Source: a virus (taxonomy: Duplodnaviria; Caudoviricetes). From it: 27,447 bases of DNA. The position numbers and the translations under genes were made by a program. The stretch is taken from IMG/VR virus record IMGVR_UViG_3300008107_000471, positions 1 through 27,447 of that record; one strand, 5' to 3'. Shown here one piece after another: positions 2-19,545 of the stretch (positions are counted from its first letter, which is position 1; each line of letters begins with the position of its first letter). The notes under the pieces were generated by a model that saw nothing but the letters and a program-made list of their open reading frames with translations, was not told the origin of the DNA and searched no databases.

Positions 2-1414
2 CTTGAGCCGCAGCTTGATAGCGTCCAGCGAGAGAAGAACTCCCAGCAGGGCATCTCCGAAGGGACGATGAACCCTGATGATCGTGATCGTGAGATCTAC
101 GAGTGATACTGCGAACTGGACATTCAGGGCTTTGAGCATCGCTACAAGGGCAAGCACTCTGGCCTTGAGATCCCGTATCGCGTGACGATTGATGTCTCGA
201 CCAAGCAGATCCTGTCCGTCGTTCGCAACTACGACGAAGAGGATGGTGATCTTCCCGAAGCACGACAGGTGTTCGTGAAGTACCAGTTCGTTCCGGGCAT
301 GGGCTTCTACGACATTGGCCTGCTGCACATTCTCGGGAACACGACCAATGCGATGACTGCTGCTTGGCGCGAACTGCTGGACGCTGGGATGTACGCGAAC
401 TTCCCCGGCTTCCTCATGGCAGACACGGGTGCGCGCCAGAACACCAATATCTTCCGTGTTCCTCCGGGTGGTGGTGCGCTGGTGAAGACCGGCGGGCTGC
501 CTATCAGTCAGGCTGTGATGCCGCTGCCGTACAAGGAGCCGAGCGGTGCGCTGATGAACCTCGTCCAGAACATGGGCGAGACGGGCGCGAGGGTCGGTGG
601 AACGTCGGAGCTTGCCGTTGGCGAGGGGAAGGCCGATGCGCCGGTCGGCACGACGCTAGCCCTGATCGATCAGGCCACGAAGGTGATGAATGCCGTCCAC
701 AAGCGTATGCACAACGCGCAGGCTGAAGAGTTCCAGCTTCTGGTGAGGTGCTTCCGCGAGCATCCTGAGAGCTTCTGGCAGCGATGCAAGAAGCCAAGCA
801 TCGAGTGGAACGAGCAGACGTTCGTGCAGGCTCTGAACGATTGCGAGCTTGTGCCGCAGGCTGATCCCAACACGGCCAGCCATACGCAGCGTGTAATGAA
901 GGTCATGGCGTTGAAGCAGCTTCAGGCTGCTAATCCCAACATGTACGATCCCGTTGCGATTGACACGGAAGCCCTGAAGACGATTGGCTGGAGCAACCCC
1001 GAGCAGTTCCTGATCCCGATGGAAGCTCAGGGCAGGCCGCATCCTGAACTGATCGAGAAGATGGAGCGCCTGAAGATCGACAAGCAGAAGGCTGACGCCG
1101 ACACGATGCGCGCGCAGGCTGATGTTCAGGGGCAGATGGAGAAGCTCCAGCTTGAGAACGCGAAGACGCAGATCGACGCGCACAGCAAGGTCACGAAGAC
1201 GAACATCGATGCCGAGAAGGCGAAGGCTGAGATGGGCTACTCCGAGGCTGATCTGGAGAGCAAGAAGGAAGATCGCCTGTCGAAGGAGCGCGTACAGCTT
1301 ATCGACCTCGCCCAGAACCTCGCCGTCCACCCCGAGAGCGCCGGTCTGGTGGCTCCGCTGATCCGTCCTGCTCTGAACGAGCTTGCGACTGACAAGAGCG
1401 TCGGTGGCGTCTGA
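2..1414 (+). CDS. Phage portal protein, 5'-truncated by window edge; contains an in-frame TGA at 104-106
   Basis: Frame 2 reads as continuous protein from base 2 (LEPQLDSVQREKNSQQG...DREIYE*YCELDIQGFEH...PYRVTID) into the 182..1414 ORF. Motifs FVKYQFVPGMGFYDIGLLH, LLDAG..ANFPG, PLPYKEPS, APVGTTLAL, HKRMH.AQ.EEF and VPQADPN are typical of P22-like/podoviral portals. C-terminal coiled coil; first gene of the structural module. Confidence 0.85.
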
Positions 1415-1857
1415 TGGCTGACGATGATGACATCGGCAATGCCATCAGGATTGCCAAGAGCGGAGCATCTACAGTCGATTCTCCAGCTCAAAAGATGATG
1501 TCCGAGTACAAAGATGACACTTGGGATCATCCTTTTGATAGCAGGTCTAGGCTTTTGAACACTCAAACAGGGCTGGAACCTAGGTCTGACTTTGCTGAAA
1601 TTGAAATGGGAAAGTCTGGAGATGACGAAATTCATGTAAATTCTATCAAAGCGTTGACAAAAAGGCGCGGACAGGGGACTCAGGCGCTTCAATACATCAA
1701 AAATCTCGCTGATAAGCATGGAGTTACGATTACTGGACATGCAAAACCATACGGTTCTGGCGGAATGAACGCAAAAGACCTGAAAGATTGGTACAAAAGG
1801 CATGGATTTTCTATCAATAGGTCTGGTGACATGATCAGGAAGCCTCAAAAGGGCTGA
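1414..1857 (+). CDS. GNAT-fold acetyltransferase-like protein
   Basis: Coupled to the portal by a TGATG overlap. IHVNSI..L.KRRGQGTQALQYIKNLADKHG resembles acetyl-CoA-binding motif A, and LKDWYKRHGF resembles the C-terminal FY.K.GF motif. Confidence 0.65.
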   Translation: MADDDDIGNAIRIAKSGASTVDSPAQKMMSEYKDDTWDHPFDSRSRLLNTQTGLEPRSDFAEIEMGKSGDDEIHVNSIKALTKRRGQGTQALQYIKNLADKHGVTITGHAKPYGSGGMNAKDLKDWYKRHGFSINRSGDMIRKPQKG

Positions 1858-1873: not shown

Positions 1874-4800
1874 ATGAACTACGACCAGATCATCCGCAAT
1901 GCCCTGCGACTTGCGAAGGCTCCTCGCAGGTTTGCCTCTGGTGGAGAGGTTGTTCCCAAGAAAATGGGAACTTCTCCCATCCCAAAGGGTATGGTTCGTC
2001 GTTTTCATGTTACTGGATCTCAAAATATTGATGATATCAAGAAGAATGGTCTCACCATGCAAAAGGCTCGCGGCATTGAGGGGCCAAAAGCAATCTATTC
2101 TTGGCCCGATGAAGATAGTGCAAGGTCATATGCCGGGCCTTACGGCTCAATAGTTGAGTTCTACGACCATCCCGAAAACTATGATAGCCATCGATTTGGC
2201 CGACTTGGTGATGTTCCAAAGGATCAGATTCTGGCAATCCATGAGCCGTGGCACGAAAGATACCGATATGCACTTGAGGAAAATATTCCCTCAACGGTAT
2301 TGAGGGATGCTGGCGGTCCAGATTACGAAAAAGCTGCTGATGCTCTTGATAAGAGCCGGGGATATGCTCTTGGCGGGGAGGCAGATTCCAAGGACATCTC
2401 GCCATCCATCTCAAATCCCGTCTCCGTCTTCCCCAAGCCACAGAGGATGTTTCCCTCTGATGCACCTGTCCCCGGTGGTCAGTATCTGGGAATGCCTGAC
2501 AAGCAGGACATGACCGGCCACAAGTCTGCCGTGGCGTCGATTGGTGTCCATCCCGGCGGCAAGCCCTACTTCAATGCATCGAAGGACGCTGTTGATCAGA
2601 CCGGGACCGCTGGAAAGGCGAAGACCAAGACGAACCTGTTCAAGCAGAAGGCTGGCTGGTCTTGGCAGAACGCGCCAGAGGGGCATGAGGACACGAACAC
2701 GATTGTGTCTGTCGAGCATCGCGGCAAGCACTACTACGCTCTGAACGCTCATTTCCCGAAGGGAGTGGACTTCGCGAGGTACGAGAAGGCCAAGAGCGAG
2801 CCTCGACTGCGTCCGACAACGACCGGGGATGTATTCCTTGGTCCGCAGGCAGGGACGATCAGCGTCAGGGGCAAGGAGCATCCCGTCTATCATCATGTTG
2901 TGGTGAAGGCTGATGGTGGAGCGGTCGGCTATGCCTCTGGCGGGGACGTAGACCAGCCTCGTCAGCTAGATGACCGTGGCTTCTACAGCGCAGCAGCCGA
3001 AGCTGCCCGTTCCCTCCCCCAAGCCAAGGGCAGTCCATCCCAGATGATGGCTACCATGAAGGGGGTGAAGCCCTCCGAGCTTGAGTGGTCCGGTGCCGGG
3101 AAGGCTTTTGCCAACCAGAAGACCGTGACCAGAGACGATCTGGCGCAGCATTTTGAGCAGAATGTCCCTAAGATCACCGAAACTGTTCTTGGTGGAAATG
3201 CTAATGCCAATCCTAGAACAAAATATCAGGATTACACACTAGGAAATACTTATGGAAACGAAATTCCAAGGGATCGAAACTATAGAGAAATTTTGCTTGG
3301 TCTTGATAATCCAAAAATACTTCATCAATCAAGTCATTGGGACGAACCCAATGTAATTGCCCACCTGCGAATGCAAGATCGCGGCCCTAACAATGACGTT
3401 CTTCACCTTGAAGAGCTTCAATCCGATTGGGCGCAAAAGGGAAGAGATGAAGGATTTTTTACCAAAGAGGATCTTATCAAAAGAGAAGCAGCAAAAAAGT
3501 CTTTTGAAGAATATTCAAAAGAATTAGCAGATAAATACGGTCTAAATCCAAGGTTAAATCTTGCGATGTACAGGAGCATTGCGGGAATGCACGACTCAGA
3601 AGTTGAAAAATATGAACAACTTCAGAGGGAAGCAATTATTACTGGTGCAATTATAAAAAATAAAAAAATCAACCCCGCTCCATACGTCACTAACACCGAT
3701 CATTGGACCGAGCTTGCCCTTAAGCGCGCTCTGATCGAGGCCGCGCGCGGCGGCTACAACAAGCTCGTCTGGACTCCGGGTGAGGAGCAGGCGAAGAGGT
3801 ACAGTCTTGGGAATTATGCGGATAAAATTAAATATAGTCCAGAGGGAGAAACACTTAGAGGATATAAAAATGGTGAAATGATTTTTGCCAAAGCAGGTGT
3901 AAAACAAGATAGCTTGCATGAGCATATTGGAATGGAGCTTGCTGATGAAATTATGCAGCACCGCAATTCAGTAGAAGAAAATGGAAGAGTTTTTCATGAA
4001 TTGACCGGTCAACAGTTGTTCATGGGCGGAAAGGGCATGACTGAGTATTACGGCAAGATTCTACCCAATGCTCTTCGTCGTGTTCTAAAGCCCCATACAA
4101 ACAAGATCCAGCCGACCTCCCATGTCGTTAAGGACAACGATGGAAATGACGTTACTCTCCCCGGCATTGAGATCACTCCAGAGATGCGCGATTCGATCCT
4201 GAAGAAGGGCTTCTCGCATTACGCTCATGGTGGTGAGGTGCGCCAGCACTTTGAGGTTGGTGGTGGTGCAGAGGGTGGAGACTCGGGCGGCGACGATTCG
4301 TCCAATGGAGATGGGGACAGCTTCAGTTCCAACTCTGACATGGCGGATTTTGGCAGCCAGACGGAACGTGAAGATTCCAGTCCAGCCGCTCCATCCTACT
4401 CCCCGACAGATCAAGATCCCTCGATGCTTGGCGGGGCTACAGAGATGGCATTCTCTCCTCTCGGCTCCGGGTCACTTGGAGTTGGGGCTGGGCAAGTGAG
4501 CGGCAGCGTCCTTGGCAATGCCGAGCAGAACTTGAACACAGGGCCGGGGGTTGTTGGCTTCATCGGTGGATCGCCTCTTGGCGCTCTTGCGTATGCGATG
4601 GAGCAAATCAACAACACCTACTATGATGGCAAGGCTCGCGCCGATGTAGACCAGAACGTCGGTGGTCCATCGTCTGGTCAGAACCCAACTGCTGCGGATG
4701 TAGTGTATCCGCAGTCTGCAAATCCCTCTGGAGGTTTCAGGCTCTCCAGCGATGATGAAGAGACGCAGGCTGGCATGGTGAAGCCTGTTGCGTTCGCTCC

Positions 4801-4930
4801 TCCCGCTCCTCCGATGATGGCTTCTGGCGGGAAGGCACGAAATTCCCATCCCGTTCTTTCAATTCCCGGTGTACATATCAGGGAAGAGATCCACGGCAGG
4901 CCGATCTTCCTTGGAGACAGAAATGGATGA
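1874..4930 (+). CDS. Large polyvalent (multi-domain) putative virion/ejected protein: ART-like domain + unknown domain + EELQSDW-type domain + acidic low-complexity tail
   Basis: 1018-aa ORF with SD GGAG upstream. Domain 1 has FHVT...IKKNGL...AIYSW...ARSYA (ADP-ribosyltransferase-fold pattern). Domain 3 has GFYS...YREILL...HWDEPNVIAHLR...EELQSDW...APY...LKRAL...GM.EYY, a pattern recalled from phage large polyvalent proteins. Domains are separated by xAxGG motifs. Confidence 0.65.
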   Translation: MNYDQIIRNALRLAKAPRRFASGGEVVPKKMGTSPIPKGMVRRFHVTGSQNIDDIKKNGLTMQKARGIEGPKAIYSWPDEDSARSYAGPYGSIVEFYDHPENYDSHRFGRLGDVPKDQILAIHEPWHERYRYALEENIPSTVLRDAGGPDYEKAADALDKSRGYALGGEADSKDISPSISNPVSVFPKPQRMFPSDAPVPGGQYLGMPDKQDMTGHKSAVASIGVHPGGKPYFNASKDAVDQTGTAGKAKTKTNLFKQKAGWSWQNAPEGHEDTNTIVSVEHRGKHYYALNAHFPKGVDFARYEKAKSEPRLRPTTTGDVFLGPQAGTISVRGKEHPVYHHVVVKADGGAVGYASGGDVDQPRQLDDRGFYSAAAEAARSLPQAKGSPSQMMATMKGVKPSELEWSGAGKAFANQKTVTRDDLAQHFEQNVPKITETVLGGNANANPRTKYQDYTLGNTYGNEIPRDRNYREILLGLDNPKILHQSSHWDEPNVIAHLRMQDRGPNNDVLHLEELQSDWAQKGRDEGFFTKEDLIKREAAKKSFEEYSKELADKYGLNPRLNLAMYRSIAGMHDSEVEKYEQLQREAIITGAIIKNKKINPAPYVTNTDHWTELALKRALIEAARGGYNKLVWTPGEEQAKRYSLGNYADKIKYSPEGETLRGYKNGEMIFAKAGVKQDSLHEHIGMELADEIMQHRNSVEENGRVFHELTGQQLFMGGKGMTEYYGKILPNALRRVLKPHTNKIQPTSHVVKDNDGNDVTLPGIEITPEMRDSILKKGFSHYAHGGEVRQHFEVGGGAEGGDSGGDDSSNGDGDSFSSNSDMADFGSQTEREDSSPAAPSYSPTDQDPSMLGGATEMAFSPLGSGSLGVGAGQVSGSVLGNAEQNLNTGPGVVGFIGGSPLGALAYAMEQINNTYYDGKARADVDQNVGGPSSGQNPTAADVVYPQSANPSGGFRLSSDDEETQAGMVKPVAFAPPAPPMMASGGKARNSHPVLSIPGVHIREEIHGRPIFLGDRNG

Positions 4931-6302
4931 CGATCAGGAAGCACCTCCTCCTCTCTCCGACAAGGAAACCAAGGATCTTGTCGGCAAGATTCAGTCTGTT
5001 CTGACGCCCGATCTTCTTAAGCCAAAGTACAGGAAGATGAGCGAAGGCGAGCATCCAACCTTCGGTCATTGTGGATCAGCTACTCAGGCCGCGTATTACA
5101 TGCTTGGCGGAGAGGAAAGCGGTTACGTCCCTCAAGTTGCAAATCTAGGTGACGGCACGACTCATTGGTGGCTTCGACATCGCGATACGGGTCATGTGAT
5201 TGACCCGACCAAGGAGCAATTCACCAGCAAGGGTAAGAAGCCCCCGTATGACCGTGGCCGGGGCTGTGGCTTCCCCAATCCCAACCCTGATGTTCCGTCC
5301 AAGCGAGGTCAGGAGATCATCAATCGCATCAGGGGCAGGGCTGCTAGGGCATCTGGCGGCTCCGTCGATGAATCCGACATCGCCTCTCCTCCCCCTGCGG
5401 AAGAGACAGGCATCGACGCTTATCACGGTTCTCCGCATGAATTTGAACAGTTCGACAGTTCCAAGATCGGCACCGGGGAGGGGGCGCAGGCTTATGGGCA
5501 TGGGTTGTATTTTGCTGAGCATGAACCTATAGCAAAAGGATATAGAGATAGGCTATCACAAAGCGATGTACAAATTGGGAAATATTTTTACGATCCAGCG
5601 GCACTAATGCATTATTTAGAAAATCCAAAATCTCTTGATGACGAGATAAGAAAAAATTATGATATTCTCGAGAGAAACATAAAACTTTTTGAGAGAAACA
5701 ATAGGGATTTTGGAGAAGCAGCAAAAGCAATTGATTTAATAGAAATAGACAAACTTGAACAGTTAAAAAAAATAGATTTAAGTAAAATTAATATTCCAAA
5801 AGGCCACATGTACGAGGTCCGCATCAACGCGCACCCGGATCACTTCCTTGATTGGGACAAGCCTCTAAGCGAGCATAAACCAGAGGTGCAAAAGGCACTT
5901 TCTGGACTTGATCCCTATGTCACATCAAGCGGAGAAAAGATTTGGAAAGAGTTGTCTAAACCAGCCTTTGCATCAACTCCAACAAATACACCTAAAGAAG
6001 CTGCGGATTGGTTAAGGAAACAAGGCATCGTAGGCATCAAGTACCTTGATGCCGGATCGCGCAGGGAAGGTAAGGGAACACACAACTACGTCGTGTTCGA
6101 TGACAAGCTGATCAACATCAAGCGTCGCTATGAGATGGGCGGCGCGGTTCCTATGGCTTCTGGCGGGGAAACAGGAGATACTCAGAACATGCCCCAAGGC
6201 ATCTCCCCTGAGCAGCAGAGCCTGCTCGACCAGCTTTCCCGAGCCATAGACGAGTCTGTGGCCAGCAGGACTACAACATCAACCGTTTGCAGGATGCTCT
6301 GA
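4923..6302 (+). CDS. Polyvalent protein: papain/transglutaminase-like Cys-His-Asp domain + ART-PolyVal-like ADP-ribosyltransferase; probably the 5' half of a frame-broken gene continuing to 8884
   Basis: ATG at 4923 with GGAG SD at 4913 is preferred over the track start 4869. GHC(5070)...HWWL(5163)...IDPT(5202) triad pattern, then AYHGSPHEFEQFD...GTGEGAQAYGHGLYFAE...GIKYLD...NYVVFD, the ART-PolyVal signature. Confidence 0.7.
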   Translation: MDDDQEAPPPLSDKETKDLVGKIQSVLTPDLLKPKYRKMSEGEHPTFGHCGSATQAAYYMLGGEESGYVPQVANLGDGTTHWWLRHRDTGHVIDPTKEQFTSKGKKPPYDRGRGCGFPNPNPDVPSKRGQEIINRIRGRAARASGGSVDESDIASPPPAEETGIDAYHGSPHEFEQFDSSKIGTGEGAQAYGHGLYFAEHEPIAKGYRDRLSQSDVQIGKYFYDPAALMHYLENPKSLDDEIRKNYDILERNIKLFERNNRDFGEAAKAIDLIEIDKLEQLKKIDLSKINIPKGHMYEVRINAHPDHFLDWDKPLSEHKPEVQKALSGLDPYVTSSGEKIWKELSKPAFASTPTNTPKEAADWLRKQGIVGIKYLDAGSRREGKGTHNYVVFDDKLINIKRRYEMGGAVPMASGGETGDTQNMPQGISPEQQSLLDQLSRAIDESVASRTTTSTVCRML

Positions 6303-8884
6303 ACAGGGTGCCTGCTGCGGCTCATGGCGGGGCTATGGGCTACGCCGAAGGCGGGGACGTAGAGAACAACCCTGCCGTCCAGAAGGCTCTGTCCCTGACC
6401 TCTGGCGTCAACACCCCGGCTCTCCACAGCACGTTTGGCCTTGAGAACCGCCCCTCTGCCATTGTCTCTCCTCGCCCCGGCAAGGGTGGTGGTCCTCCGA
6501 TCACTCACAGGCCAGAGAACTTTGATCCTTCGTTGGTTACGGATCAGGAGCCTTGGACATACTCCACTCCTGACATCATTGGTGCGTCCAAGCCCCCGCC
6601 TGTTCAACACCCTGTGTTCAATGAACCTAGGATGAAGAACATCACTAGGCACACAGCAAAGATTTTTAACAATAAAAACTTTGCAAAAATTGTTAAGGAA
6701 ATTACAGGTCTTGAAGGTGTTACCGCCACTCCGACTGTTGGAACTTGGCAAAAGGAGATGGAGCCTTCTTTCATCATTCATCATCCTGAGATGACATCTG
6801 ACCATGCCAAGGCTCTCGCTCACCTTCTGGGATTTGGATTCCAGCAGGATGCAGCGGTACACACTTGGCACAACGATTCGACTGAGGATGGCATCCCAGC
6901 CCTTCTCATTGGCAACGGGAACAAGTTGACAAACAAAGACATTGATCGTATAGCTAAGCTAGCAAATCATCACGGAATTGACTTTACTGTAACTGCCGAT
7001 GGAAAGGCTGCAAAGTTTCTTCATTTTGGTGATGAAAAGAGCTATCACGATTTTGCCGATAAAGTTGGCAATATTGCAGACTCTACTGGCATGAGCGAAA
7101 AGTATCATGCCAAAACTCAAGGAGACCTGATCTATGCGAAAGACTATCTCAATGGCATATTCGGAAAAGGTGGCGGCTCAGAAGGGGTTCAAGCCAGCCC
7201 CGAAAGATCACCCGATCTATTCCGAAGGATTGTCGATCACATTCTTGCACCATACTCGAAAGCCGTCGCATCAGAAGGCTATCGCCTCTCACCAGAAAGG
7301 CTCCAAGAGGCATACGGACTGACTGATGATGAGGCTGAGTATGTAAGGAAGGCAATGCGGCCTTCTGGCCGGGCAGACAGGACAACAATCCCCCTGATGA
7401 CAGGAAAGGAGAAGTTGGATATCCGCCCCACAGGCAGCAGGGGGCAGCCTACTGTCGAAGACGCCTTGTATGCGCTTCAAAATCGAGCGGCAGCCAAGGG
7501 GCAAATTGATCCGGGCGACTACAGTAAGCAGGCAATGAACAAGATTGCCAGCGATATTGCGGAAGAAGTTAAGTATCACATGGATTCCAGCAATGCTGGA
7601 AACCAGAAATCTGCTATTGGATGGTATGATTCAGCCTTAAAAGCTGCAATGGGCAAGTATACAGATATCTTTCCGCAGCTTCTAAAAAATCAAGATGACA
7701 AAATGCTGTTTCATGCCATCCTTGGAATTACATCTCAGGGCAATGACGTTTATTCCAATTCAATAAATGCCGCTAGGGTGTTTTCTCTGATGAAAAATCA
7801 GGGAATGAGCCTTCCAAATGCGGTAAAGAAGCTTTCGGGAACTTTTGGAGCGCAAACAAACGCAATTGAGCAAAATCTACTGAAGCTCCACCATCTTTTG
7901 AATACAAATGGCTTCAATGCCATGCGGTCTTTTTTTAACAACAAGACAACTGTATCTCAGCTAAATAGCTTTTTGAGGAAAAATCCGCAATTCTTTGGTC
8001 CATCTGGCAATCCCCTTGAGGCTCAAGGCAAGGGTGATCAGATTGTATCTGGATGGTCTGTTTTTGGACCCAAAATTGGTTCGTTTATTAACAATCTGCA
8101 TGGTGACTACTCTACCCTGACTGCCGATCTTTGGTTCTCCAGAACTTGGAACAGGCTTCTTGGTCATAATTTTGTACATACTCCCATAACTGAAGCAAAG
8201 CAGTATAGGGATCTTCGCGATGCGATGACTGCGGAACATGCTTATCACAACGGACTTCCGGCTGAACAGGCTCCTTATACAAAAAATGGGAAAATAGACA
8301 CAAGCCGTAATTGGCTTCATGGTTCAGATTTGAAGGACATGAACCATGATGAGTTTAAAAATTTGATAAATGATCCAGAAGCCGTGCTTAATTTTGCAAA
8401 AGATGTGGCCGATAAGTACGCAGATAGTGGATATAAGGACAAATCTGACGTTAGGCGCAGGGCAAAGAATTGGATTGAAAACAGGGAAAAGCCTGTTGAG
8501 GCTCCAAGGGGAGATGAAGAGCGAGCCTTTCAGCAGAACACCGCCGAGCTTGCTCAAAAGCTTATAAAGAAGAGATACGGTGTAGATATCAGCATAGCTG
8601 ATATTCAGGCCGCCTTGTGGTTTCACGAAAAGGAACTTTTCGACAAGCTTGGAGTTTCTTCCAAGAAAACCAAGCCTGCCGATTACGTTGATGCCGCTGA
8701 CCAGACAATTGAGCTAATGAAGAACGGTCAACTCTTTCAGGCTCAGTCCAAGAAAAGGAAGGCCGAAAAGGCATCTGGCGGGTCAGTCGTTGACCAAGCC
8801 CTTCGTTTGGTGTCTAAATACAAGGCGCATCCAGATAGTGCCTTGTCCATGTCCAAGCACTTGATTCAGCGGGGACGCCCGTAA
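6287..8884 (+). CDS. Polyvalent protein (3' part): unknown domain + HhH DNA-glycosylase-like domain
   Basis: 865-aa ORF with a weak TTG start and no adjacent SD; the frame is open from 6212. The C-terminal half has GWY...AILGITSQG...N...GPKIGSFINNLHG...TADLWFSR...IQAALW, a pattern recalled from phage HhH-glycosylase-like (DUF7178-type) domains. Confidence 0.55.
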   Translation: MQDALNRVPAAAHGGAMGYAEGGDVENNPAVQKALSLTSGVNTPALHSTFGLENRPSAIVSPRPGKGGGPPITHRPENFDPSLVTDQEPWTYSTPDIIGASKPPPVQHPVFNEPRMKNITRHTAKIFNNKNFAKIVKEITGLEGVTATPTVGTWQKEMEPSFIIHHPEMTSDHAKALAHLLGFGFQQDAAVHTWHNDSTEDGIPALLIGNGNKLTNKDIDRIAKLANHHGIDFTVTADGKAAKFLHFGDEKSYHDFADKVGNIADSTGMSEKYHAKTQGDLIYAKDYLNGIFGKGGGSEGVQASPERSPDLFRRIVDHILAPYSKAVASEGYRLSPERLQEAYGLTDDEAEYVRKAMRPSGRADRTTIPLMTGKEKLDIRPTGSRGQPTVEDALYALQNRAAAKGQIDPGDYSKQAMNKIASDIAEEVKYHMDSSNAGNQKSAIGWYDSALKAAMGKYTDIFPQLLKNQDDKMLFHAILGITSQGNDVYSNSINAARVFSLMKNQGMSLPNAVKKLSGTFGAQTNAIEQNLLKLHHLLNTNGFNAMRSFFNNKTTVSQLNSFLRKNPQFFGPSGNPLEAQGKGDQIVSGWSVFGPKIGSFINNLHGDYSTLTADLWFSRTWNRLLGHNFVHTPITEAKQYRDLRDAMTAEHAYHNGLPAEQAPYTKNGKIDTSRNWLHGSDLKDMNHDEFKNLINDPEAVLNFAKDVADKYADSGYKDKSDVRRRAKNWIENREKPVEAPRGDEERAFQQNTAELAQKLIKKRYGVDISIADIQAALWFHEKELFDKLGVSSKKTKPADYVDAADQTIELMKNGQLFQAQSKKRKAEKASGGSVVDQALRLVSKYKAHPDSALSMSKHLIQRGRP

Positions 8885-8896
8885 GGAGAAGACGAG

Positions 8897-10450
8897 ATGT
8901 ACCAGACTGCCAAGAAGGCTCGCGAAGCCATGAAGAGCAAGGCCAAGCGCCTTGCTTCTGATCGTCCGCTCCAGAAGGTTGATTCATCGACCTTCCGGCC
9001 CCCGGAGATGCTCAATGCCGATGTGAAGACGGGGCTGCGTCCTGTCTCGCGTCGAGCCTACAAGAGCGGCGGCAAGGTGGACGGCTCCTGCGGTCCCATG
9101 CGCGCGGATCGCAAGGCTCGCAAGTCTGGCGGCAAGACTGAGGCGACTGCTTACGCGAACGCGAAGGTCAATCGCAACGTGAAGGATGCCAACGAGGAGC
9201 GTGAGGGCATCAAGCATGTTGGCGGGATGAAGTCTGGTGGTCGCGCCAAGAAGTACAATGGCGGTCCTATGGCTGGGGCCAATCGCATGATGGCTGACGC
9301 CTCTCAGCGGGCTGGCGTTCCTTCTGCGATGCTTGGCTTCTCCGGTGTGAAGCGTGGCGCTCTGTCCCCGATTCGGGCTACCGGCCTGAAGAAGGGCGGC
9401 AAGGCTGATGACGCCGCGCAGGACAAGGCTCTGGTGAAGAAGGCTGTGCGGCAGCATGAGACGGCGCAGCATGGCGGCAAGCATTCTGAACTGAAGCTGC
9501 GTCGCGGTGGCTATGCCAAGAAGCAGGGTGGCGGCGGCCTCTACCTTACAGAAATGCCGCGCCTGACTCCTGCTGAACTGGAAATGCTTCGCAGGGGGCA
9601 AGATCCGTATGAGGGTGACACCACAAGGGGTCTGACCGACATGCCCAAGCGTGCTGGCAAGCCTACTCCGAGTGCTGGATCTGTTCTGACTGGCGCGGCG
9701 AGCATGTATCGCAAGGATGGCGGCAAGGTCCGCAAGGCTGATGGTGGCGGGGCTGGCAAGAGCGAGATTGAGCGTGTGCTTGAGCGCGCGCGCGCGGGCA
9801 ATCCCGATCCCAAGACTCGCTACGTCAGCTACGCCAAGGAAGAGCGCCGTCCGAGCAAGCCTCCTTCTGCTCTCGATGAAGTCGATGAGGAAATTGCTGA
9901 TACCCAGCGTGAAGCCAAGATGGAAGAGATGTACAAGGCTTTCCGCGCCAAGAAGGCTGCTGCGGCTCGACAGAAGGCGAAGGAGGAGTCCGAGCGCGAC
10001 TCCAACGTGCGTGAGGGTCTCTCGCGTATGCCGATGTTCAAGCATGGCGGCGAGGCAAAGCGCACGGCTCGCGCTAGCGGTGGTCGCACGGGCAAGAAGG
10101 GCAAGGGCAAGACCAACATCAACATCGTGATCGATGCTGGTGGCGCGAAGGCTCCGGGCCTTGGTGCGATGCCTCCGCTGCCGATGCCGGGTGGTCGCCC
10201 TGTTCCGCCGCCGATGCCGGTTGGTGGTCCGGGCGCAGGCGCGCCGATGGGTCTGGGTGCTGGCCCGATGCCGCCTGCCGCGCCGCCTCCTGCGATGCCT
10301 GCTGGCCCGATGCCGATGGCTCGCAAGCACGGTGGTCGCACGATGCGTCGTGCCGGTGGCAAGGTCTATCGGAGCTACAAGGACATGGATGCTGGCGCGG
10401 GTTCCGGTCTCGGTCGCCTTGAGAAGACGGAGATCGCACGGAGGAACTGA
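8897..10450 (+). CDS. Highly basic Lys/Arg/Gly-rich protein with about 13 xKxGG repeats and a Pro/Met-rich C-terminal segment; putative internal head/core protein
   Basis: 517-aa ORF with strong SD AAGGAG and high-expression-type codon usage. Repeats include YKSGGKV, RKSGGKT, MKSGGRA, LKKGGKA, RKDGGKV, FKHGGEA, RASGGRT, RKHGGRT and RRAGGKV. The function is inferred. Confidence 0.6.
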   Translation: MYQTAKKAREAMKSKAKRLASDRPLQKVDSSTFRPPEMLNADVKTGLRPVSRRAYKSGGKVDGSCGPMRADRKARKSGGKTEATAYANAKVNRNVKDANEEREGIKHVGGMKSGGRAKKYNGGPMAGANRMMADASQRAGVPSAMLGFSGVKRGALSPIRATGLKKGGKADDAAQDKALVKKAVRQHETAQHGGKHSELKLRRGGYAKKQGGGGLYLTEMPRLTPAELEMLRRGQDPYEGDTTRGLTDMPKRAGKPTPSAGSVLTGAASMYRKDGGKVRKADGGGAGKSEIERVLERARAGNPDPKTRYVSYAKEERRPSKPPSALDEVDEEIADTQREAKMEEMYKAFRAKKAAAARQKAKEESERDSNVREGLSRMPMFKHGGEAKRTARASGGRTGKKGKGKTNINIVIDAGGAKAPGLGAMPPLPMPGGRPVPPPMPVGGPGAGAPMGLGAGPMPPAAPPPAMPAGPMPMARKHGGRTMRRAGGKVYRSYKDMDAGAGSGLGRLEKTEIARRN

Positions 10451-10561
10451 TCCGTCAGACCTTGTCTCCCGGCAAACTGACGGATCGGGGAGAGGATGTG
10501 AACCCCCCTCACATTCTCTCCCCAACAGACCTACATAGAGGGGGGACTGCGAGGGGGCAGT
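10449..10561 (+). promoter_or_regulatory. Structured intergenic element (three hairpins, possible pseudoknot onto the SD region)
   Basis: GATCCGTCAG(10449-58)/CTGACGGATC(10477-86); GGGGAGAGGATGTGA(10487-501)/TCACATTCTCTCCCC(10509-23); ACTGC/GCAGT(10546-61). CCCCCCTC(10503-10) is complementary to GAGGGGGG(10538-45). Confidence 0.6.
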
Positions 10562-10562
10562 A

Positions 10563-10763
10563 ATGTTGACGCATCAAGCGTTCTATCAGAATGAATTGAG
10601 GAAGAATTTGCTTGAGAGAATTGAGGTTGCAAAAGACAGCCTCGTCACATCTCACACAGCAATCGAACACGCCGACTACAAGTTCAGGGTTGGTGTTATT
10701 CACGGGCTTCAGGCTGCGCTTGAGGCGTGTGAAGAAGTTGAATCTGAACTAAACAAACGGTAG
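10563..10763 (+). CDS. Small conserved phage protein upstream of GroES
   Basis: 66 aa, helical, Y..RVG.I.GL..A pattern, G-rich SD upstream; fits the operon packing. Confidence 0.7.
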   Translation: MLTHQAFYQNELRKNLLERIEVAKDSLVTSHTAIEHADYKFRVGVIHGLQAALEACEEVESELNKR

Positions 10764-10771
10764 GGGGTATC

Positions 10772-11164
10772 ATGCCGTACATGCGTATGACTCACGATGT
10801 CGATCCGACCAAGAAGATCCTCGATGAAATCGGTGATCTGTCTACAGTCGAGATCTTCAACAACCAGATCCTTGTTGGCGTCTATATTCGCCCGCAGAAG
10901 ACCAAGAGTGGTCTCTATCTGTCGGACAAGACTACTGACGAGGACCGTTTTCAGTCGAAGGTCGGGCTGCTGCTGAAGGTTGGCTCTCGCGCTTTCGAGG
11001 AGAACGAAGAGGGATGGTTCAAGGGAGACAAGTTCAGCCTGCATGACTGGCTGGTCTTCCGTCCGTCCGATGGCTGGAGCATCACCGTGAATGGTGTTCT
11101 GTGCCGAATGCTTGCGGATACGCAGGTGAAGGGGCGCGTGAAGTTCCCCGATGAAGTTTGGTGA
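10772..11164 (+). CDS. groES: GroES/Cpn10-like co-chaperonin
   Basis: NQILV...KTKSGLYL (mobile loop)...VGLLLKVGSRAF...W.K.D...DWLVF...G..CRML.D matches the Cpn10 pattern. Confidence 0.8.
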   Translation: MPYMRMTHDVDPTKKILDEIGDLSTVEIFNNQILVGVYIRPQKTKSGLYLSDKTTDEDRFQSKVGLLLKVGSRAFEENEEGWFKGDKFSLHDWLVFRPSDGWSITVNGVLCRMLADTQVKGRVKFPDEVW

Positions 11165-11174
11165 GGAGAAAGTC

Positions 11175-12065
11175 ATGTCTGATCCGAAGGACGAACAGCT
11201 TGAGATCAATCTCGATGAGTCGGCAAAGGACACGGAGCCGAAGGTTGAGGTGAGCGACGATCCGGTGGTTGAAGCTGCGCCGGAACCCGATCCTGCTCCT
11301 GTCGAAGATCCCTTGAAGGCGATTGCAGAGCTTCGTGAGAAGCTTGAGGCAGAGCGTCGGGCGCGTATCGAAGCTGAAAATCGCGCGCGCATGGCGAGCA
11401 GCGAGGTTGATGACACCAATCTTCAGCTTGTGACTGGCGCGATTGAGACGATGCAGCGTGAGCAGGGCATCCTCAAAGGCCAGTTCAAGGAGGCGATGTC
11501 GGTTGGCGACTACGACAAGGCTGCTGAAATTCAGGAAGCCATGTCGAACAACGCCGCAAAGCTGCTTCAGCTTGAGAACGGCAAGGAGGCTATGAAGTCG
11601 AAGCCTCGTCAGGAGCCTGTTCAGAGGTCTTCTGATCCTGTCGAAGCGTTCGCATCTCAGCTTTCGCCTCGTTCTGCTGACTGGGTTCGCAAGAACCCGC
11701 AGTTCGTGACCGATCCGCGCCTCAATCAGAAGATGATTGCGGCTCACAACATCGCTCTTGCCGATGGTCATGTGCCGGATACTGACTCGTACTTCTCTGC
11801 CATCGAGGATACGCTCAGGATTCGACGCTCTGAACAGCCTCGCGCAGAGGAAACGACGGAGTCTCCCTTGTCTGCTGCTGCCAAACCTGTCGCTCGCTCT
11901 GTTCCGCCCGCTGCTGCACCCGCAAATCGCAGCGGAAATGGTCGTGCGAACGTCGTTCGACTTACGCGAGCGGAGGCTGACACGGCAAAGATGCTCGGCA
12001 TGACCGAAACCGAGTACGCGAAGCACAAACTGGCCCTCCAAAAGGAGGGCAAGCTGCCCAATTGA
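11175..12065 (+). CDS. Putative capsid scaffolding protein
   Basis: ATG at 11175 after SD GAGGAG. Acidic N-terminus, long coiled coil and C-terminal VRLT..E...AKMLGM...EYAK; lies upstream of the capsid genes. Confidence 0.65.
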   Translation: MSDPKDEQLEINLDESAKDTEPKVEVSDDPVVEAAPEPDPAPVEDPLKAIAELREKLEAERRARIEAENRARMASSEVDDTNLQLVTGAIETMQREQGILKGQFKEAMSVGDYDKAAEIQEAMSNNAAKLLQLENGKEAMKSKPRQEPVQRSSDPVEAFASQLSPRSADWVRKNPQFVTDPRLNQKMIAAHNIALADGHVPDTDSYFSAIEDTLRIRRSEQPRAEETTESPLSAAAKPVARSVPPAAAPANRSGNGRANVVRLTRAEADTAKMLGMTETEYAKHKLALQKEGKLPN

Positions 12066-12076
12066 GGAGATAGATC

Positions 12077-12694
12077 ATGGAAAACGTCATCAATCCCGCT
12101 GCTCCGACCGTTTCCGAGGCTCCCCGCAGGCGCGGCAGGCCCCCGAGGACTGTCCAGAAGGTCGAGGAGACCGTCGAGGAGACTGTTGCAGCCGTGCCGA
12201 GGGCTGAGATGCGCTCCGAGGTGCGTGAGGAAGACCCGCGCGCCCGTGCTGCTCGTCGTGCAGCAGAGATCCGGGGTCATCTTGGCGACATGGATCAGGG
12301 TACGGACGAGTTCTACATCGACCCAACCCTCATTCCCGAGGGCTGGACGTATGAGTGGAAGCGGTTTCAGGTGCTGGGGCAGGAAGACGCCACGCATCAG
12401 GTTCATCTGGCGCGGATGGGCTGGGAAGTCGTTCCTGCTCGTCGCCATCCCGGCATGATGCCCTCGTCGTGGACCAAGGGAACCATCGAGCGCAAGGGAA
12501 TGGTGCTGATGGAGCGTCCCACGGAGGTTGTCGAGGAAGCTCGTCGCATCCAGCAGAAGGTCGCCAAGGATCAGGTGCGCGCCAAGGAGGCCCAGATCGC
12601 CGGTACTCCTGATGGCACCATGACTCGCGACCATGTCCTTGCACGACCGAAGATCAACAAGAGCTATGAGCCGATCCCGATTCCGAAGGAGTAA
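12077..12694 (+). CDS. Conserved phage head-module protein of unknown function
   Basis: SD GAGGAG; N-terminal RRGRPP (AT-hook-like); PEGWTYEWKR...GWEVVP...GMVLMERP pattern, as recalled for genes between scaffold and capsid in such phages. Confidence 0.65.
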   Translation: MENVINPAAPTVSEAPRRRGRPPRTVQKVEETVEETVAAVPRAEMRSEVREEDPRARAARRAAEIRGHLGDMDQGTDEFYIDPTLIPEGWTYEWKRFQVLGQEDATHQVHLARMGWEVVPARRHPGMMPSSWTKGTIERKGMVLMERPTEVVEEARRIQQKVAKDQVRAKEAQIAGTPDGTMTRDHVLARPKINKSYEPIPIPKE

Positions 12695-12717
12695 ATAGGC
12701 ACTACAATGCTGACATG

Positions 12718-12756
12718 AAAAGGGGGGAGATTGATTTCTCCCCCCTTTACTTTTCT
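12718..12756 (+). terminator. Rho-independent terminator (possibly bidirectional)
   Basis: AAAGGGGGGAGA(12719-30)/TCTCCCCCCTTT(12737-48) perfect 12-bp stem followed by ACTTTTCT, with an A-run on the 5' side. Confidence 0.75.
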
Positions 12757-12780
12757 AACCAACCATGTGAATAGTTTTGA

Positions 12781-12860
12781 GCCTCCCCCGGTGAGGAGGT
12801 TTTTCATCCCGGTCATAAGTCGCCCCGGTGTGCGATGATGGACCTCCTGAAGAAGGAGAA
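12781..12860 (+). promoter_or_regulatory. Leader of capsid operon with twin CCCGGTG-loop hairpins
   Basis: GCCTCC-cccggtga-GGAGGT(12781-800) and TCGC-cccggtgt-GCGA(12820-35), the latter nested in GGTC/GACC; a third CCCGGT at 12808; SD AAGGAG at 12853. Confidence 0.5.
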
Positions 12861-12866
12861 TCCGTT

Positions 12867-13448
12867 ATGGCGAACACCAATGCGCCTTTCGGCTTCCGGC
12901 AGTATCAGGGGACTGGCTCTGCTCCGACGTATGAGCAGGTTCCCGTCAAGATTGCCTACAACGCGACGAACATCTTCTTTGGCGACCCGGTTGAGCCGGA
13001 TGCCAACGGGTATGTGGTTCAGGGTGACGGCACGACAGCGGCTGCTGGCATTGCTGGCATCTTTGTCGGCTGTCAGTACCTCTCGGTCGCCCAGAAGCGC
13101 ACCGTGTGGTCGAACTACTGGCCCGGCTCGGATGTCGCTTCGACGCAGACCGTCACGGGCTACATCGTCAATGATCCGAATGCCAAGTTCGTCGTCCAGT
13201 CGGACGCGACCGGCATCGTGCAGGGCGATGTGAACCTGAACGTCGCCTACACCATCGGCACCGGCAATACGTCGAGCGGCATCTCGGGCGCGTTCATCTC
13301 TGGCGCGAACACGACCAACACCCTGCCGTTCCGCATCGTCGGCCTGATCACCGACCCTCCGGGTTCGGCTGGCACGGAGAGTGGCGCGTACAACTGGGTG
13401 GTCGTTGCGTTCAACAACGTCGCCACCAAGTCCCTCACGGGCATCTGA
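12867..13448 (+). CDS. Putative minor capsid / head decoration protein
   Basis: ATG at 12867 after AAGGAG. MANTNAPFGFR...IFFGDPV...GIFVGCQY...V.DP...F.VQ; beta-rich; immediately upstream of the major capsid gene. Confidence 0.65.
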   Translation: MANTNAPFGFRQYQGTGSAPTYEQVPVKIAYNATNIFFGDPVEPDANGYVVQGDGTTAAAGIAGIFVGCQYLSVAQKRTVWSNYWPGSDVASTQTVTGYIVNDPNAKFVVQSDATGIVQGDVNLNVAYTIGTGNTSSGISGAFISGANTTNTLPFRIVGLITDPPGSAGTESGAYNWVVVAFNNVATKSLTGI

Positions 13449-13463
13449 GAGGAGTAAGCACCA

Positions 13464-14375
13464 ATGGCTGTTAATCTTAGTGCCATCAAGGATCTGCTCC
13501 TCCCCGGCCTCCGTGGCATCGAGGGCAAGTACGAGCAGATCCCGTCGCAGTACGACAAGATCTTCACGAAGCATGAGTCGAAGATGGCTCTGGAGCGCAC
13601 CGCTGAGATGCGCTTCCTTGGCCTCGCGCAGCTCAAGACTGAAGGTGGTCAGACTGCTTTCGACAACAGCGCGGGCGAGCGTTACGTCTACAATCAGGAG
13701 CATACCGAGATCGCTCTCGGGTATGCCATCACTCGCAAGGCGATTGATGACAACCTGTACAAGACGCAGTTCATGCCGTCGAACCTTGGTCTCATCGAGT
13801 CCTTCCAGCAGACCAAGGAGATCTATGGCGCGAACGTCCTGAACACCGCGACCACCTACAATGCGTCGATTGGTGGTGACGGCAAGGCTCTCGTCGCGAG
13901 CGACCATCCGATTGATGGTGGCACGGTTGCGAACACGCCTGCGACGCAGGTGGAACTCAACGAGTCCACCCTGCTCAACGGCATGATCGCTGTCCGCGCC
14001 AACTTCAAGGATCAGGCTGGCCTGAAGGTGTTTGCGCGCGCGCGCAAGCTCATCGTGCCGACTGCTCTGGAGCCGGTTGCGATCCGACTGACGAAGACGG
14101 AACTGCGTCCGGGTACCGCGGACAATGATGTGAACGCGATCCTTATGACTTCCGGTGGTCTGCCGGAAGGCTACATGGTCAGCGACTTCCTCACATCGTC
14201 TTCGGCTTGGTTCCTGCTCACGAACATTGACGGTCTCTCGTACATGGAGCGCGTCAAGTTTGAGTCGGACATGCAGGTCGATTTCGTCACGGACAACCTG
14301 CTGGTGAAGGGCTACGAGCGTTACAGCTTCGCCTACTACAACTGGCGAGCGATCTGGGCGTCGTTCCCGACCTGA
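13464..14375 (+). CDS. Major capsid protein (HK97 fold, Mu gpT-like)
   Basis: 303 aa. LLPGL, K.EG....FD, Y.H...ALGYAITRKAIDDNLY, GGDGKAL....HP, KLIVP..L, GTADNDVN, AWFLLT and ERYSF...WR motifs; strongly biased codons; strong SD. Confidence 0.9.
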   Translation: MAVNLSAIKDLLLPGLRGIEGKYEQIPSQYDKIFTKHESKMALERTAEMRFLGLAQLKTEGGQTAFDNSAGERYVYNQEHTEIALGYAITRKAIDDNLYKTQFMPSNLGLIESFQQTKEIYGANVLNTATTYNASIGGDGKALVASDHPIDGGTVANTPATQVELNESTLLNGMIAVRANFKDQAGLKVFARARKLIVPTALEPVAIRLTKTELRPGTADNDVNAILMTSGGLPEGYMVSDFLTSSSAWFLLTNIDGLSYMERVKFESDMQVDFVTDNLLVKGYERYSFAYYNWRAIWASFPT

Positions 14376-14379
14376 CCAA

Positions 14380-14484
14380 GGAGGGGGGCGGGGAAACTCG
14401 TCCCCCTTCGCACTCCGGGGAACCGGATCACGTTGACTGCCCCGGCAGACGCTGCACCGACAACGTGATCTCATCGTGCAGGAG
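14380..14484 (+). ncRNA. Candidate cis-regulatory structured RNA between the capsid gene and the next gene
   Basis: 13-bp stem with GAAA loop (14380-409); TCCGG-ggaa-CCGGA(14414-27); GATCACGTTG(14426-35)/CAACGTGATC(14461-70) enclosing CTGC-cccg-GCAG; CTGCAC(14452-57)/GTGCAG(14476-81) crosses the stem and reaches the SD. Confidence 0.6.
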
Positions 14485-14490
14485 ACTTGA

Positions 14491-14958
14491 ATGGCAACCA
14501 CGACATTTACTGGCCCGGTCAAGGCTGGCGATGTTCTGAACACGACTGGCTCGACTGCCGGTACGGTGAAGAACGTCGGCTTCGTTGAGATGGTCCAGTC
14601 TGTGGCTATCACGCAGTCTGCAACGGCTGCTGCTACCACCATCTGCATCCCCGCCAACAGCCAGATCATCGACATCTCTGCGCTCGTCACGACGGGCTTC
14701 ACGGGTGCTGCTGGCACTCTGAATGTTGGCACGACCTCCACCTCGACTGAGCTTGTCGCGGCGGCGAACTTCGACCTTGCGGCTGTTGGTCTTGCGAGTG
14801 CCTCTCCCGGCACGGACGCGACGCGCACAGCCAAGTGGATCGATGTCGGCACCACCGATGTCATCATCTACGTCAAGGCGGCGAACGCTCCGTCTGGCTC
14901 GACTGGCGCGGCGATCCTGACGGTTCGCTACGTTCAGGCTATCAATCTCACAGCGTGA
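14491..14958 (+). CDS. Putative virion structural (capsid spike/decoration) protein
   Basis: MATTTFTGPVKAG...IPANSQIIDI...LNVG...G.AILTVRYVQ; Thr/Ala-rich beta protein directly after the capsid gene. Confidence 0.6.
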   Translation: MATTTFTGPVKAGDVLNTTGSTAGTVKNVGFVEMVQSVAITQSATAAATTICIPANSQIIDISALVTTGFTGAAGTLNVGTTSTSTELVAAANFDLAAVGLASASPGTDATRTAKWIDVGTTDVIIYVKAANAPSGSTGAAILTVRYVQAINLTA

Positions 14959-14972
14959 TCAGGAGAGAAACC

Positions 14973-15230
14973 ATGAAGGGCAAGACTCAGAAGGGTGTGA
15001 AGGCGCAGCAGGATCTCCGTAGCGGGTTCTATGCTGGCGCGGGTTCCAACGTCGCTTCCGAGGCCAAGAGCAAGGCCGAGGGCTTCAAGCGTGGTGGCAA
15101 GGCGAAGCACATGGGCAAGGTCCACGGTGCCGCTGCGATGGCTCACGCTGGTCGCAAGCCGCGCAAGTCGGGTGGTGGCGTTTTCTCGTCCGCTGCCAAG
15201 GGTTCGATGCGCCCCGGCTTTGAGGGCTGA
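14973..15230 (+). CDS. Small basic Gly-Gly-motif protein (85 aa)
   Basis: ATG at 14973 after AGGAG; the track start 14835 overlaps the upstream gene. Contains FKRGGKA and RKSGGGV; similar to segments of the 8897 protein. Confidence 0.7.
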   Translation: MKGKTQKGVKAQQDLRSGFYAGAGSNVASEAKSKAEGFKRGGKAKHMGKVHGAAAMAHAGRKPRKSGGGVFSSAAKGSMRPGFEG

Positions 15231-15252
15231 ACTCCGACGATAGTCTGAACTT

Positions 15253-15280
15253 GAGCGGGGGCCTAGCGCCCCCGTTCTTG
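15253..15280 (+). terminator. Terminator-like GC hairpin
   Basis: GAGCGGGGGC(15253-62)/GCCCCCGTTC(15268-77), with only a short U-tract. Confidence 0.45.
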
Positions 15281-15293
15281 CATGGAGAGAGCG

Positions 15294-15533
15294 ATGCCGG
15301 GTGCATGGACACGCAAGGAGGGGAAGAATCCCTCCGGTGGTCTGAACGAGAAGGGTCGTGCTTCTCTGCGCGCGCAGGGGCATGACATCAAGCGTCCGCA
15401 GCCCGAGGGTGGTTCGCGGCGCGATAGCTTTTGCGCCCGGATGACGGGCATGAAGCGCAAGCTGACAGGCTCTGCGAAGGCTGCTGATCCCAACAGCCGG
15501 ATCAATAAGAGCCTGCGGGCTTGGAACTGCTGA
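15294..15533 (+). CDS. Small basic conserved phage protein
   Basis: ATG at 15294 after GGAG; GGLN.KGR...RRDSFCARM...DPNSRINKSLRAWNC pattern, recalled from aquatic phages. Confidence 0.7.
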   Translation: MPGAWTRKEGKNPSGGLNEKGRASLRAQGHDIKRPQPEGGSRRDSFCARMTGMKRKLTGSAKAADPNSRINKSLRAWNC

Positions 15534-15931
15534 TGTCTGCCAAGCCTCAGAATTCAGGTCTCTGGGGCAGAGCCAAGGCTGCTGCTCGGGCCAAGTTTGA
15601 TGTGTACCCTTCTGCCTATGCCAACGCATGGGCATCGAAGTGGTACAAGTCGCATGGCGGCAAGTGGTCTGGCTCGGACAACCGTGTCGCCAAGGCGTCT
15701 GGAGGCGGGCTAGGAAAGTGGTTCGCTGAAGACTGGCGAGATGTGAAGACCGGCAAGGAATGTGGTAGGATCGAAGGAGAGAAGGGCAAGCGTCCGTATC
15801 CTGCCTGCCGTCCTGCCTCTGCTGCTTCGTCCATGACGAGCGCAGAGAAGAGGACGATGGCACGAAAGAAGACCGGCCCCGCTCGCAGATCGTGGCCTGT
15901 TTCTCCCTCTGGAGAGAAGAAGGAAGACTGA
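15533..15931 (+). CDS. Small basic two-module phage protein
   Basis: TGATG coupling at 15531-35. YPSAYANAW...WYK..GG and GLGKWFAEDW.D...CGR...YPACRP modules joined by KASGGG. Confidence 0.7.
   Translation: MSAKPQNSGLWGRAKAAARAKFDVYPSAYANAWASKWYKSHGGKWSGSDNRVAKASGGGLGKWFAEDWRDVKTGKECGRIEGEKGKRPYPACRPASAASSMTSAEKRTMARKKTGPARRSWPVSPSGEKKED

Positions 15932-16967: not shown

Positions 16968-19545
<2,578 letters not shown>

Follow-up and report, generated by a model that had tools for sequence, protein, structure and literature searches.

A family-wide Gly-Gly motif and two interchangeable terminal tags in probable head cargo proteins of a tailed phage suggest a load-and-cut code

We analyzed a Gly-Gly motif that recurs in the proteins of a tailed phage (Duplodnaviria; Caudoviricetes), IMG/VR record IMGVR_UViG_3300008107_000471, whose entire sequence of 27,447 nucleotides (positions 1 to 27,447) is referred to as the window. 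According to open reading frame (ORF) calls and to Pfam and PHROGs matches, the window is a phage head-and-tail module, in which the portal gene is followed by a GroES-like gene, a probable scaffold, the major capsid gene, adaptors, fibres, a glycosyltransferase, an endolysin, and the start of a stabilisation gene. The C-terminal part of the portal protein is encoded at 182..1414 (phrog_1216, E 1e-17; PF23899 below cut-off), and the cargo genes, in which the motif is concentrated, begin directly 3' of it. The portal and the features located in the next paragraph are all on the plus strand.

The first gene after the portal (1414..1857) is variable and encodes 147 aa with an N-terminal helix tag, IGNAIRIAK (about 1432 to 1458), without the GG motif. 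It is followed by a 1018-aa polyprotein (1874..4930) consisting of a helix-tag leader, three modules (1946-2377, 2378-2920, and 2945-4234), an acidic stretch (4265-4831), and a terminal tail, with motif copies at 1931, 2363, 2906, 2930, 4220, 4250, and 4817. A second polyprotein is split in the window. Its N-terminal half (4923..6302) contains an unknown domain (phrog_12251, E 9e-25; a weak YunG match), a RASGG copy at 5346, an ART-PolyVal module (5361-6143; PF18760, E 1.4e-7, above cut-off), and a doublet of copies at 6129 and 6153, and its C-terminal half (6287..8884) contains a doublet at 6317 and 6341, a helix tag (6377-6403), a payload of about 800 aa with a weak SAM-lyase-like part and an unnamed domain, a KASGG copy at 8768, and another helix tag (8789-8815). 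In near-identical phages these two ORFs are one 1352-aa gene (P0123, P0124, and P0126), and we took the start and the fusion from P0123; compared with the 1352-aa proteins, the window lacks about 33 codons and is shifted in frame near 6263 (within 6230-6300), a break that is either an assembly artefact or a strain deletion. The gene at 8897..10450 encodes a 517-aa basic protein (106 K+R, 53 D+E) that is conserved across the clade and carries 12 copies of a basic dialect of the motif, [RK]-K-x-GG-[KR]-[VTA]. Beyond the major capsid gene (13464..14375; phrog_371), which has no strict motif, lie an 85-aa basic protein (14973..15230) with copies at 15084 and 15162, a stand-alone basic DUF6321 module without the motif (15282..15533), and a DUF5872 gene (15521..15931) in which KASGG at 15692 joins two basic modules.

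The strict pattern, [FYMKR][AK]xGGx[VA], gave 17 matches in the window, all in two plus frames and none in the other four frames. A loose pattern gave 33 matches in seven ORFs, 12 of them within 8897..10450; two are overlapping duplicates, and about three inside domains (3740, 15647, and 17622) look like chance matches. The preliminary description of this DNA had counted about 30 copies within 1874..15720. We found every copy position that it listed (1931, 2363, 2906/2930, 4220/4250, 4817, 5346, 6129/6153, 6317/6341, 8768, 15084, 15162, and 15692), and its count is slightly generous, since about 28 copies are plausible after removal of duplicates and chance matches. One strict match, YASGGYV (17622..17642, plus strand) in the gene starting at 16968, falls outside that range; this outlier is probably not part of the system.

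The number of copies is far above chance. Over the 30 ORFs, 17 strict matches compare with 0.50 expected (maximum of 4 in 2000 shuffles), and in six cargo ORFs 16 matches compare with 0.32 expected under 20-aa local shuffles and with 0.80 expected (maximum of 5) in 3000 shuffles with every GG fixed and only the flanks shuffled. The excess with GG fixed answers the objection, raised in the preliminary description itself, that the motif might be no more frequent than in Gly-rich linkers, and an origin as such a linker by chance was rejected by all three shuffles. A DNA-level repeat or Chi-like site was likewise rejected, because synonymous codons differ among the copies; thus, the feature resides in the protein. 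For the first Gly, 320 of 330 sites use a GGY codon, versus 82% of other Gly, a preference that may reflect avoidance of GGAGG and G runs. Two dialects were distinguished: the polyproteins use aromatic-Ala-x-GG-x-Val, and the basic proteins use Arg/Lys-Lys-x-GG-Lys/Arg-Val/Thr/Ala.

The motif is a real feature of the whole phage family. About 1600 IMG/VR stretches match the capsid patterns, of which the best 80 were fetched, and among capsid-anchored loci of at least 9 kb, 38 of 39 had plus-strand ORFs with the motif. The capsid is 87% identical to that of MW202675 and 37-40% identical to those of HTVC023P, HTVC027P, CRP-901, and DSL-LC04. The motif is retained in HTVC027P, DSL-LC04, HTVC023P, MW202545, and CRP-2, whereas CRP-901, QDWS535, MW202796, MW202785, and five unrelated genomes showed no clear excess (the highest of these five, MW202867, had 3 matches versus 0.8).

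Besides, the motif is restricted to certain gene classes. No strict match was found in the portal, scaffold, capsid, adaptor, GT2, or lysis genes of the window. In six near-complete relatives, the ejection cluster had 27 matches in 13,017 aa (6.2 expected; 16 of 17 proteins), the basic proteins 56 in 2,859 aa (2.8 expected), and the variable post-portal genes 14 in 5,538 aa (1.6 expected), compared with 2 in 22,506 aa of shell and terminase genes (3.7 expected) and 24 in 61,906 aa of the remaining genes (16.2 expected), ten of which belong to misbinned cargo or basic genes. These relatives also contain 43 doublets at 8-aa spacing. A contig (L109) that is 98% identical to the last 3.2 kb of the window runs on into the ejection cluster. 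Of its two large genes, the first has 5 copies and a match to a "DNA ejection protein" PHROG, and the second has 2 copies. Among the ejection proteins that other phages encode, 32 of 38 have the motif (72 matches versus 22.9 expected), and a matrix trained only on 61 sites from them scored at least 0 at 15 of the 58 GG pairs that the six cargo ORFs contain versus 1 of 44 elsewhere in the window. Restriction to probable head cargo, as originally proposed, therefore holds out of sample, both in the six relatives and in the matrix test. Gene position and family suggest that the motif proteins are packaged.

In the large genes the copies were described as lying between domains, and this placement holds in the window and out of sample. 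Among 36 variable proteins, the 430-aa module at 2945-4234 of the 1874 gene (phrog_7348) recurs motif-to-motif near the N-terminus of one relative's protein (L048) and at the C-terminus of another's (L056), and the ART module likewise in L023 and L034. Internal alignment ends lay within 10 aa of a copy in 39 of 92 cases (null, 12.4%), a proportion to which the motif itself contributes by helping alignments to reach the border. We found 98 homologues of the 6287 payload, 94 of them usable, and in 73 of the 94 a copy stands 9-64 aa after the domain. When the first GG after the domain was taken with its flanks unselected (71 distinct cases), Ala stood at position -2 in 52, one of K/F/M/Y/L at position -3 in 58, and one of V/I/T/A/L two residues past GG in 61. 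The flanks are thus conserved at the boundary in homologues, a point on which the preliminary description had let its proposal stand or fall.

Of the three payload activities that had been named, ADP-ribosyltransferase (ART) alone stands, with PF18760 above cut-off, whereas the "protease" has no more than the sub-threshold YunG match and the "glycosylase" has no library match. Relatives carry InPase, LPD23, DUF7178, M15, and GNAT domains, with PF18760, PF18823, and PF18838 among their Pfam matches, so that these chains are polyvalent proteins as Iyer et al. (PMC5512222) use the term. A single-sequence AlphaFold2 model of the 1874 protein was unusable for domain borders (pLDDT 34.8).

Cargo proteins usually carry a short tag beyond the first or final motif copy, and two types were found. 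The first, tag A, is predicted to form an amphipathic helix and follows the pattern [IVL]-x-x-A-L-x-[ILV] (hxxALxL), with 39 matches versus 2.6 expected in the 36 variable proteins on which the pattern was also defined; 26 of the 39 are no more than 40 aa away from a terminus, and 25 are no more than 25 aa away from a copy. The second, tag B, is a tail of the form HP..IPG[VI]H (HPxxIPGxH). The 1874 protein has tag A at its start (IRNALRLAK, 1892..1918, plus strand, ahead of the first copy) and tag B at its end (4832..4927, plus strand, after the final copy). Behind the final copy in the 73 motif-bearing homologues of the 6287 payload, tag B was found in 30, tag A in 29, and another sequence in 14, and the tags are therefore interchangeable. 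Loading into the head, at first ascribed to the motif itself, is better assigned to these separate tags, which the preliminary description had not seen and which are candidate loading signals.

How might the motif and the tags work together? We consider the chances about even that they form a T4-like code of loading followed by cutting after GG. Precursors would be brought into the forming head by their short end tags, and a putative protease would then cut after Gly-Gly, dropping the tags and freeing single domains for injection. The likely cut site would be the motif, written [F/Y/M/K/R]-[A/K]-x-Gly-Gly-x-[V/I/T/A], which stands where domains join and near the termini in variable polyproteins, basic proteins, and ejection proteins.

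Where the cut would fall is suggested by one shared module, which occurs in the N-terminal contexts KASGG|GLGKWF (window, 15692), YSEGG|LRKWV (HTVC027P), VSEE|SLRDWF (T4-like phage S-SM2), M|SLRRWF (P-SCSP2), and M|SLKKWF (HTVC023P). GG thus stands at the position of a free N-terminus (start Met) or of a T4-type xxE site elsewhere. The DUF6321 module, too, follows an xxE junction inside polyproteins of three T4-like cyanophages. Proteases of virophage, adenovirus, and African swine fever virus (ASFV) are documented to cut at GG|X in the accessible text of PMC6048507, and the 8-aa doublets resemble the redundant cleavage sites of phiKZ propeptides (PMC9026906, in the part available). The idea of a cleavage site, already present in the preliminary description, therefore gains positional support, but no protease family was found in the 78 ORFs of the complete relative G001.

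As a candidate reader, we identified an unnamed domain of about 50 residues, D-x-I-P-A-x-L-S-x-G-E-[FY]-V, which we call GEFV. The ejection cluster opens with a gene (L109:5233-5781) that lies just downstream of the window end on the 98%-identical contig; it encodes an N-terminal 40-residue module, a motif copy, and then two GEFV copies, and has 3477 homologues. By profile, GEFV is present in 12 genomes and not in 9, and the link with the motif surfaced only with the profile; the motif excess in other proteins is higher in the 12 than in the 9 (p = 1.6e-4; 8e-4 without four close relatives), the genomes being hand-picked and the label changing only twice on the capsid tree, with one change forced by strong branches. 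The form of GEFV in DSL-LC04 (L086:43140-43400, minus strand) matches 376 GenBank phage records, mostly tape measure proteins among the matches listed. An AlphaFold2 model of the GEFV protein (89 sequences, pLDDT 78) has two similar small domains, with the two cis copies of the motif at or beside low-confidence stretches (48-57 and 123-128). On this correlation GEFV is the leading candidate reader and also the weakest step of the explanation. It is rather improbable that GEFV is a new virion protease family cutting after [FYMKR]-[AK]-x-Gly-Gly, which together with the two removable capsid-loading tags would make up a plug-in cargo code of short-tailed phages, and that, where hundreds of tailed phages carry this domain in their tape measure proteins, it explains the processing of these proteins.

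Searches with the GEFV protein gave few leads. A Pfam scan of the G001 protein found no match. The VIA fold matches of the modelled GEFV protein (best Z 6.5) cover the N-terminal helix pair only and barely probe the GEFV part, and the BFVD matches are uncharacterised phage proteins. The nearest named Atlas cluster is crAss_CARG1 (PF25725; 0.77), a lead only; PF25725 was not among the fold matches, which the N-terminal helices dominated. Homology to residues 425-552 of crAss001 gp45 is unsupported (hhalign probability 0.6%), and the similarity to lambda gpH is limited to a match of 20 residues with a score of 6.3 bits. The N-terminal 40-aa module (L109:5233-5360, phrog_2423) matches a region of many Acinetobacter phage genes annotated as head-maturation protease; it adjoins Nudix genes in Burkholderia phages and stands alone elsewhere, and its last helix loosely resembles tag A.

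Several points weigh against loading followed by cutting. No cut was observed, and no peptidase family was found among the 30 window ORFs (Pfam and PHROGs) or the 78 greedy-called ORFs of G001 (Pfam; a remote homologue or a missed ORF is possible). The positional comparison covers one module, and the cyanophage E sites in it are themselves inferred. Alignments spanning a loose-pattern copy number 31 of 90 versus 40 expected, a weak depletion; 21 of the 94 usable 6287-payload homologues lack a copy within 80 aa; and the 1414 protein has a tag and no motif. The count of tag A is limited by having been made on the set that defined its pattern, and the GEFV co-occurrence by the choice of genomes given above. 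The GEFV model has no recognised fold or catalytic set and no Foldseek match in the PDB at E <= 0.001.

Two proteins of other phages also bear on the cut. In crAss001, gp45 is a proven packaged cargo protein (PMC10172136); it has about nine similar copies (L104:31987-34515), and the accessible text of that paper treats it as one chain and holds no remark on the motif. The model of its portal-bound segment starts at A425-F-G-G428, so that this copy seems to be uncut after GG, and a further copy sits within the folded domain; both fit binding or no cut at those copies and count against cutting. In the model, segments 214-245 and 425-552 stop a little short of the copies at 263-264 and 562-563. 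Segment 214-245, in the tail, is bracketed by copies ending at 210 and 264, and none of the four mass-spectrometry regions named in the text available contains a copy, which fits cutting. Lambda gpH is processed at a site and by a mechanism that are both unknown, as stated in the available part of PMC12617516, and carries FATGG (733-737) and YATGG (778-782) in its unresolved C-terminal part (L103:2543-5104). We rejected it as a supporting case, and it too speaks against the proposal: a cut at FATGG gives 80.1/12.2 kDa, and the reported ~78/~14 kDa fits the non-motif GG pairs at 709-721 better.

The same motif might instead be an uncut binding ligand that docks cargo on a head component (the GEFV domain, the portal, or the capsid interior) and tethers a core, an explanation that we hold to be less likely. 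Doublets and the 12-copy basic protein would then give avidity, and the fixed 8-aa spacing, the failure to find a protease in the G001 ORFs, and the copy directly preceding the GEFV domain in the four distant proteins listed all agree with docking. On the other hand, one copy per protein would suffice for loading, yet the copies stand at module borders and between payload and end tag; GG takes the Met-start or xxE position in the shared module; the cis copies lie at or beside low-confidence stretches of the GEFV model; and the GEFV/gp45 homology is unsupported by profile comparison. Very unlikely, in our view, is a cut made only after injection by a host protease, or a reading by the ejection channel or host machinery, in which case virions would hold intact precursors. 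Here again no phage protease was found in the G001 ORFs, and Iyer et al. discuss post-entry processing of polyvalent proteins in the portion of PMC5512222 available. However, phages with Pelagibacter, Roseobacter, Gammaproteobacteria, and Bacteroides as recorded hosts have the motif, and it is absent from Roseobacter phage CRP-901 and Pelagibacter phage HTVC203P; it tracks a phage gene better than a host group.

It would be still more surprising if nothing read the motif and it were a relic, a flexible linker that duplication and module shuffling had spread, the basic copies acting only as DNA-condensing repeats. The motif is indeed short and Gly-based, lies in low-complexity regions, has two composition-dependent dialects, and shows the GGY bias at its first Gly codon. 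Against a relic, the flanks are conserved though the linker length varies from 9 to 64 aa, the excess persists with GG fixed, the copies have diverged at synonymous positions, and the motif is kept across capsid identities of 38-40%.

Loading followed by cutting has its closest parallel in T4, whose internal proteins and Alt have a terminal targeting peptide removed at L/I-X-E according to the accessible text of PMC9026906. Like T4 CTS/gp21 (L/I-X-E) and phiKZ gp175 (S/A-X-E), the present phages have a short, putatively removable terminal peptide beside a short motif, cargo made up of variable enzymes and basic internal proteins, use of both termini (as in T4 Alt), and redundant sites, and in T4-like cyanophages the same small basic modules carry E junctions. 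Unlike those phages, they have GG and not E at the junction, with no L/I-X-E there, and no gp21-like prohead protease gene was found in the 78 G001 ORFs or the 30 window ORFs. Moreover, the window probably belongs to a short-tailed phage of about 60 kb, the tags can be C-terminal and are of two types, capsid and scaffold lack sites, and the system is known here from sequence. In its working the system would be like T4 CTS/gp21, but its motif and the failure to find such a protease in these ORFs place it outside that class.

The hydrophobic-x-GG type of site on virion proteins also recalls, in pattern only, the clan CE proteases of adenovirus, ASFV, and mavirus (GG|X; PMC6048507, as available), from which the present system differs in belonging to a bacteriophage and in extra preferences at -2 (Ala/Lys) and after GG (Val/Ile/Thr/Ala); no clan CE cysteine protease was found by Pfam or PHROGs in the window or G001. 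Double-glycine export depends on a single N-terminal leader and a C39 peptidase-ABC transporter, whereas the sites described here are internal and C-terminal, with no C39 or ABC match. The polyproteins do agree with polyvalent proteins in being mosaic multidomain chains near head genes with ART-PolyVal, LPD23, and InPase, and differ from them in that no zincin metallopeptidase, a domain common but not universal there, was found in the window or the G001 cargo. An SprT-like gene lies elsewhere in MW202675. The words "glycine" and "linker" do not occur in the accessible text of PMC5512222. The nearest relatives in layout are the pelagiphages HTVC023P and HTVC027P, DSL-LC04, and MW202675, which have the same head gene order, the motif in ejection and small basic genes, and GEFV, the two pelagiphages with far fewer copies than the window phage. 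We found no description of the motif in the literature, subscription papers lying largely outside the search, and it is not mentioned in the available text of the HTVC023P-type genome paper (PMC9599517), a T5 tail preprint (10.1101/2022.09.20.507954), or PMC1796659. New here are the two interchangeable terminal tags, GG at the xxE/Met position in the shared module, and the co-occurrence of motif and GEFV.

T4-like and phiKZ-like phages, with their prohead proteases, are established users of a loading-and-cutting code. If our proposal is true, the same layout with a GG site and without a recognisable protease would be a second, independent system in an abundant phage group. As a marker, the motif singles out, among hypothetical genes, the products that are probably injected and the borders of their domains. 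With cultured phages it becomes possible to test if gp45 of crAss001 crosses the portal as one chain and by what tape measure proteins are processed. The end tags might also be tried as cargo tags for loading proteins into phage heads.

Other genes were considered in the course of the analysis. As protease candidates, the genes at 12077 and 12828 had no informative match in PDB sequences or NCBIfam, and 12077 also none in the Atlas. The domain at the N-terminus of gene 4923 (4923-5360), with Cys/His/Asp residues recognised by eye, was rejected as a general reader because it has no counterpart among the 36 variable proteins of relatives. BLAST clustering gave no gene family exclusive to motif-positive genomes. 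The gene at 12077-12694, 3' of the scaffold, is conserved, encodes 205 aa, and has no family, structure, or Atlas name. The GroES-like co-chaperonin gene (10772-11164) between the cargo genes and the scaffold is kept in both motif-positive and motif-negative relatives. The gene at 16968-17708, which carries the sole strict match outside the cargo genes, has a Cys-rich N-terminus and a weak E1_FCCH match. A large ejection protein of one relative (L082:9188-12745) has a Peptidase_S74 self-cleaving chaperone domain (residues 277-327, E 3e-11) just before its first motif copy. The distant relative MW202545 encodes, after its capsid genes, a 449-aa protein with eight copies (L193:29805-31151, minus strand), and it also has a two-domain GEFV protein. 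Finally, a GcrA regulator in G001 (L091:11759-12463, minus strand) hints at an alphaproteobacterial host.

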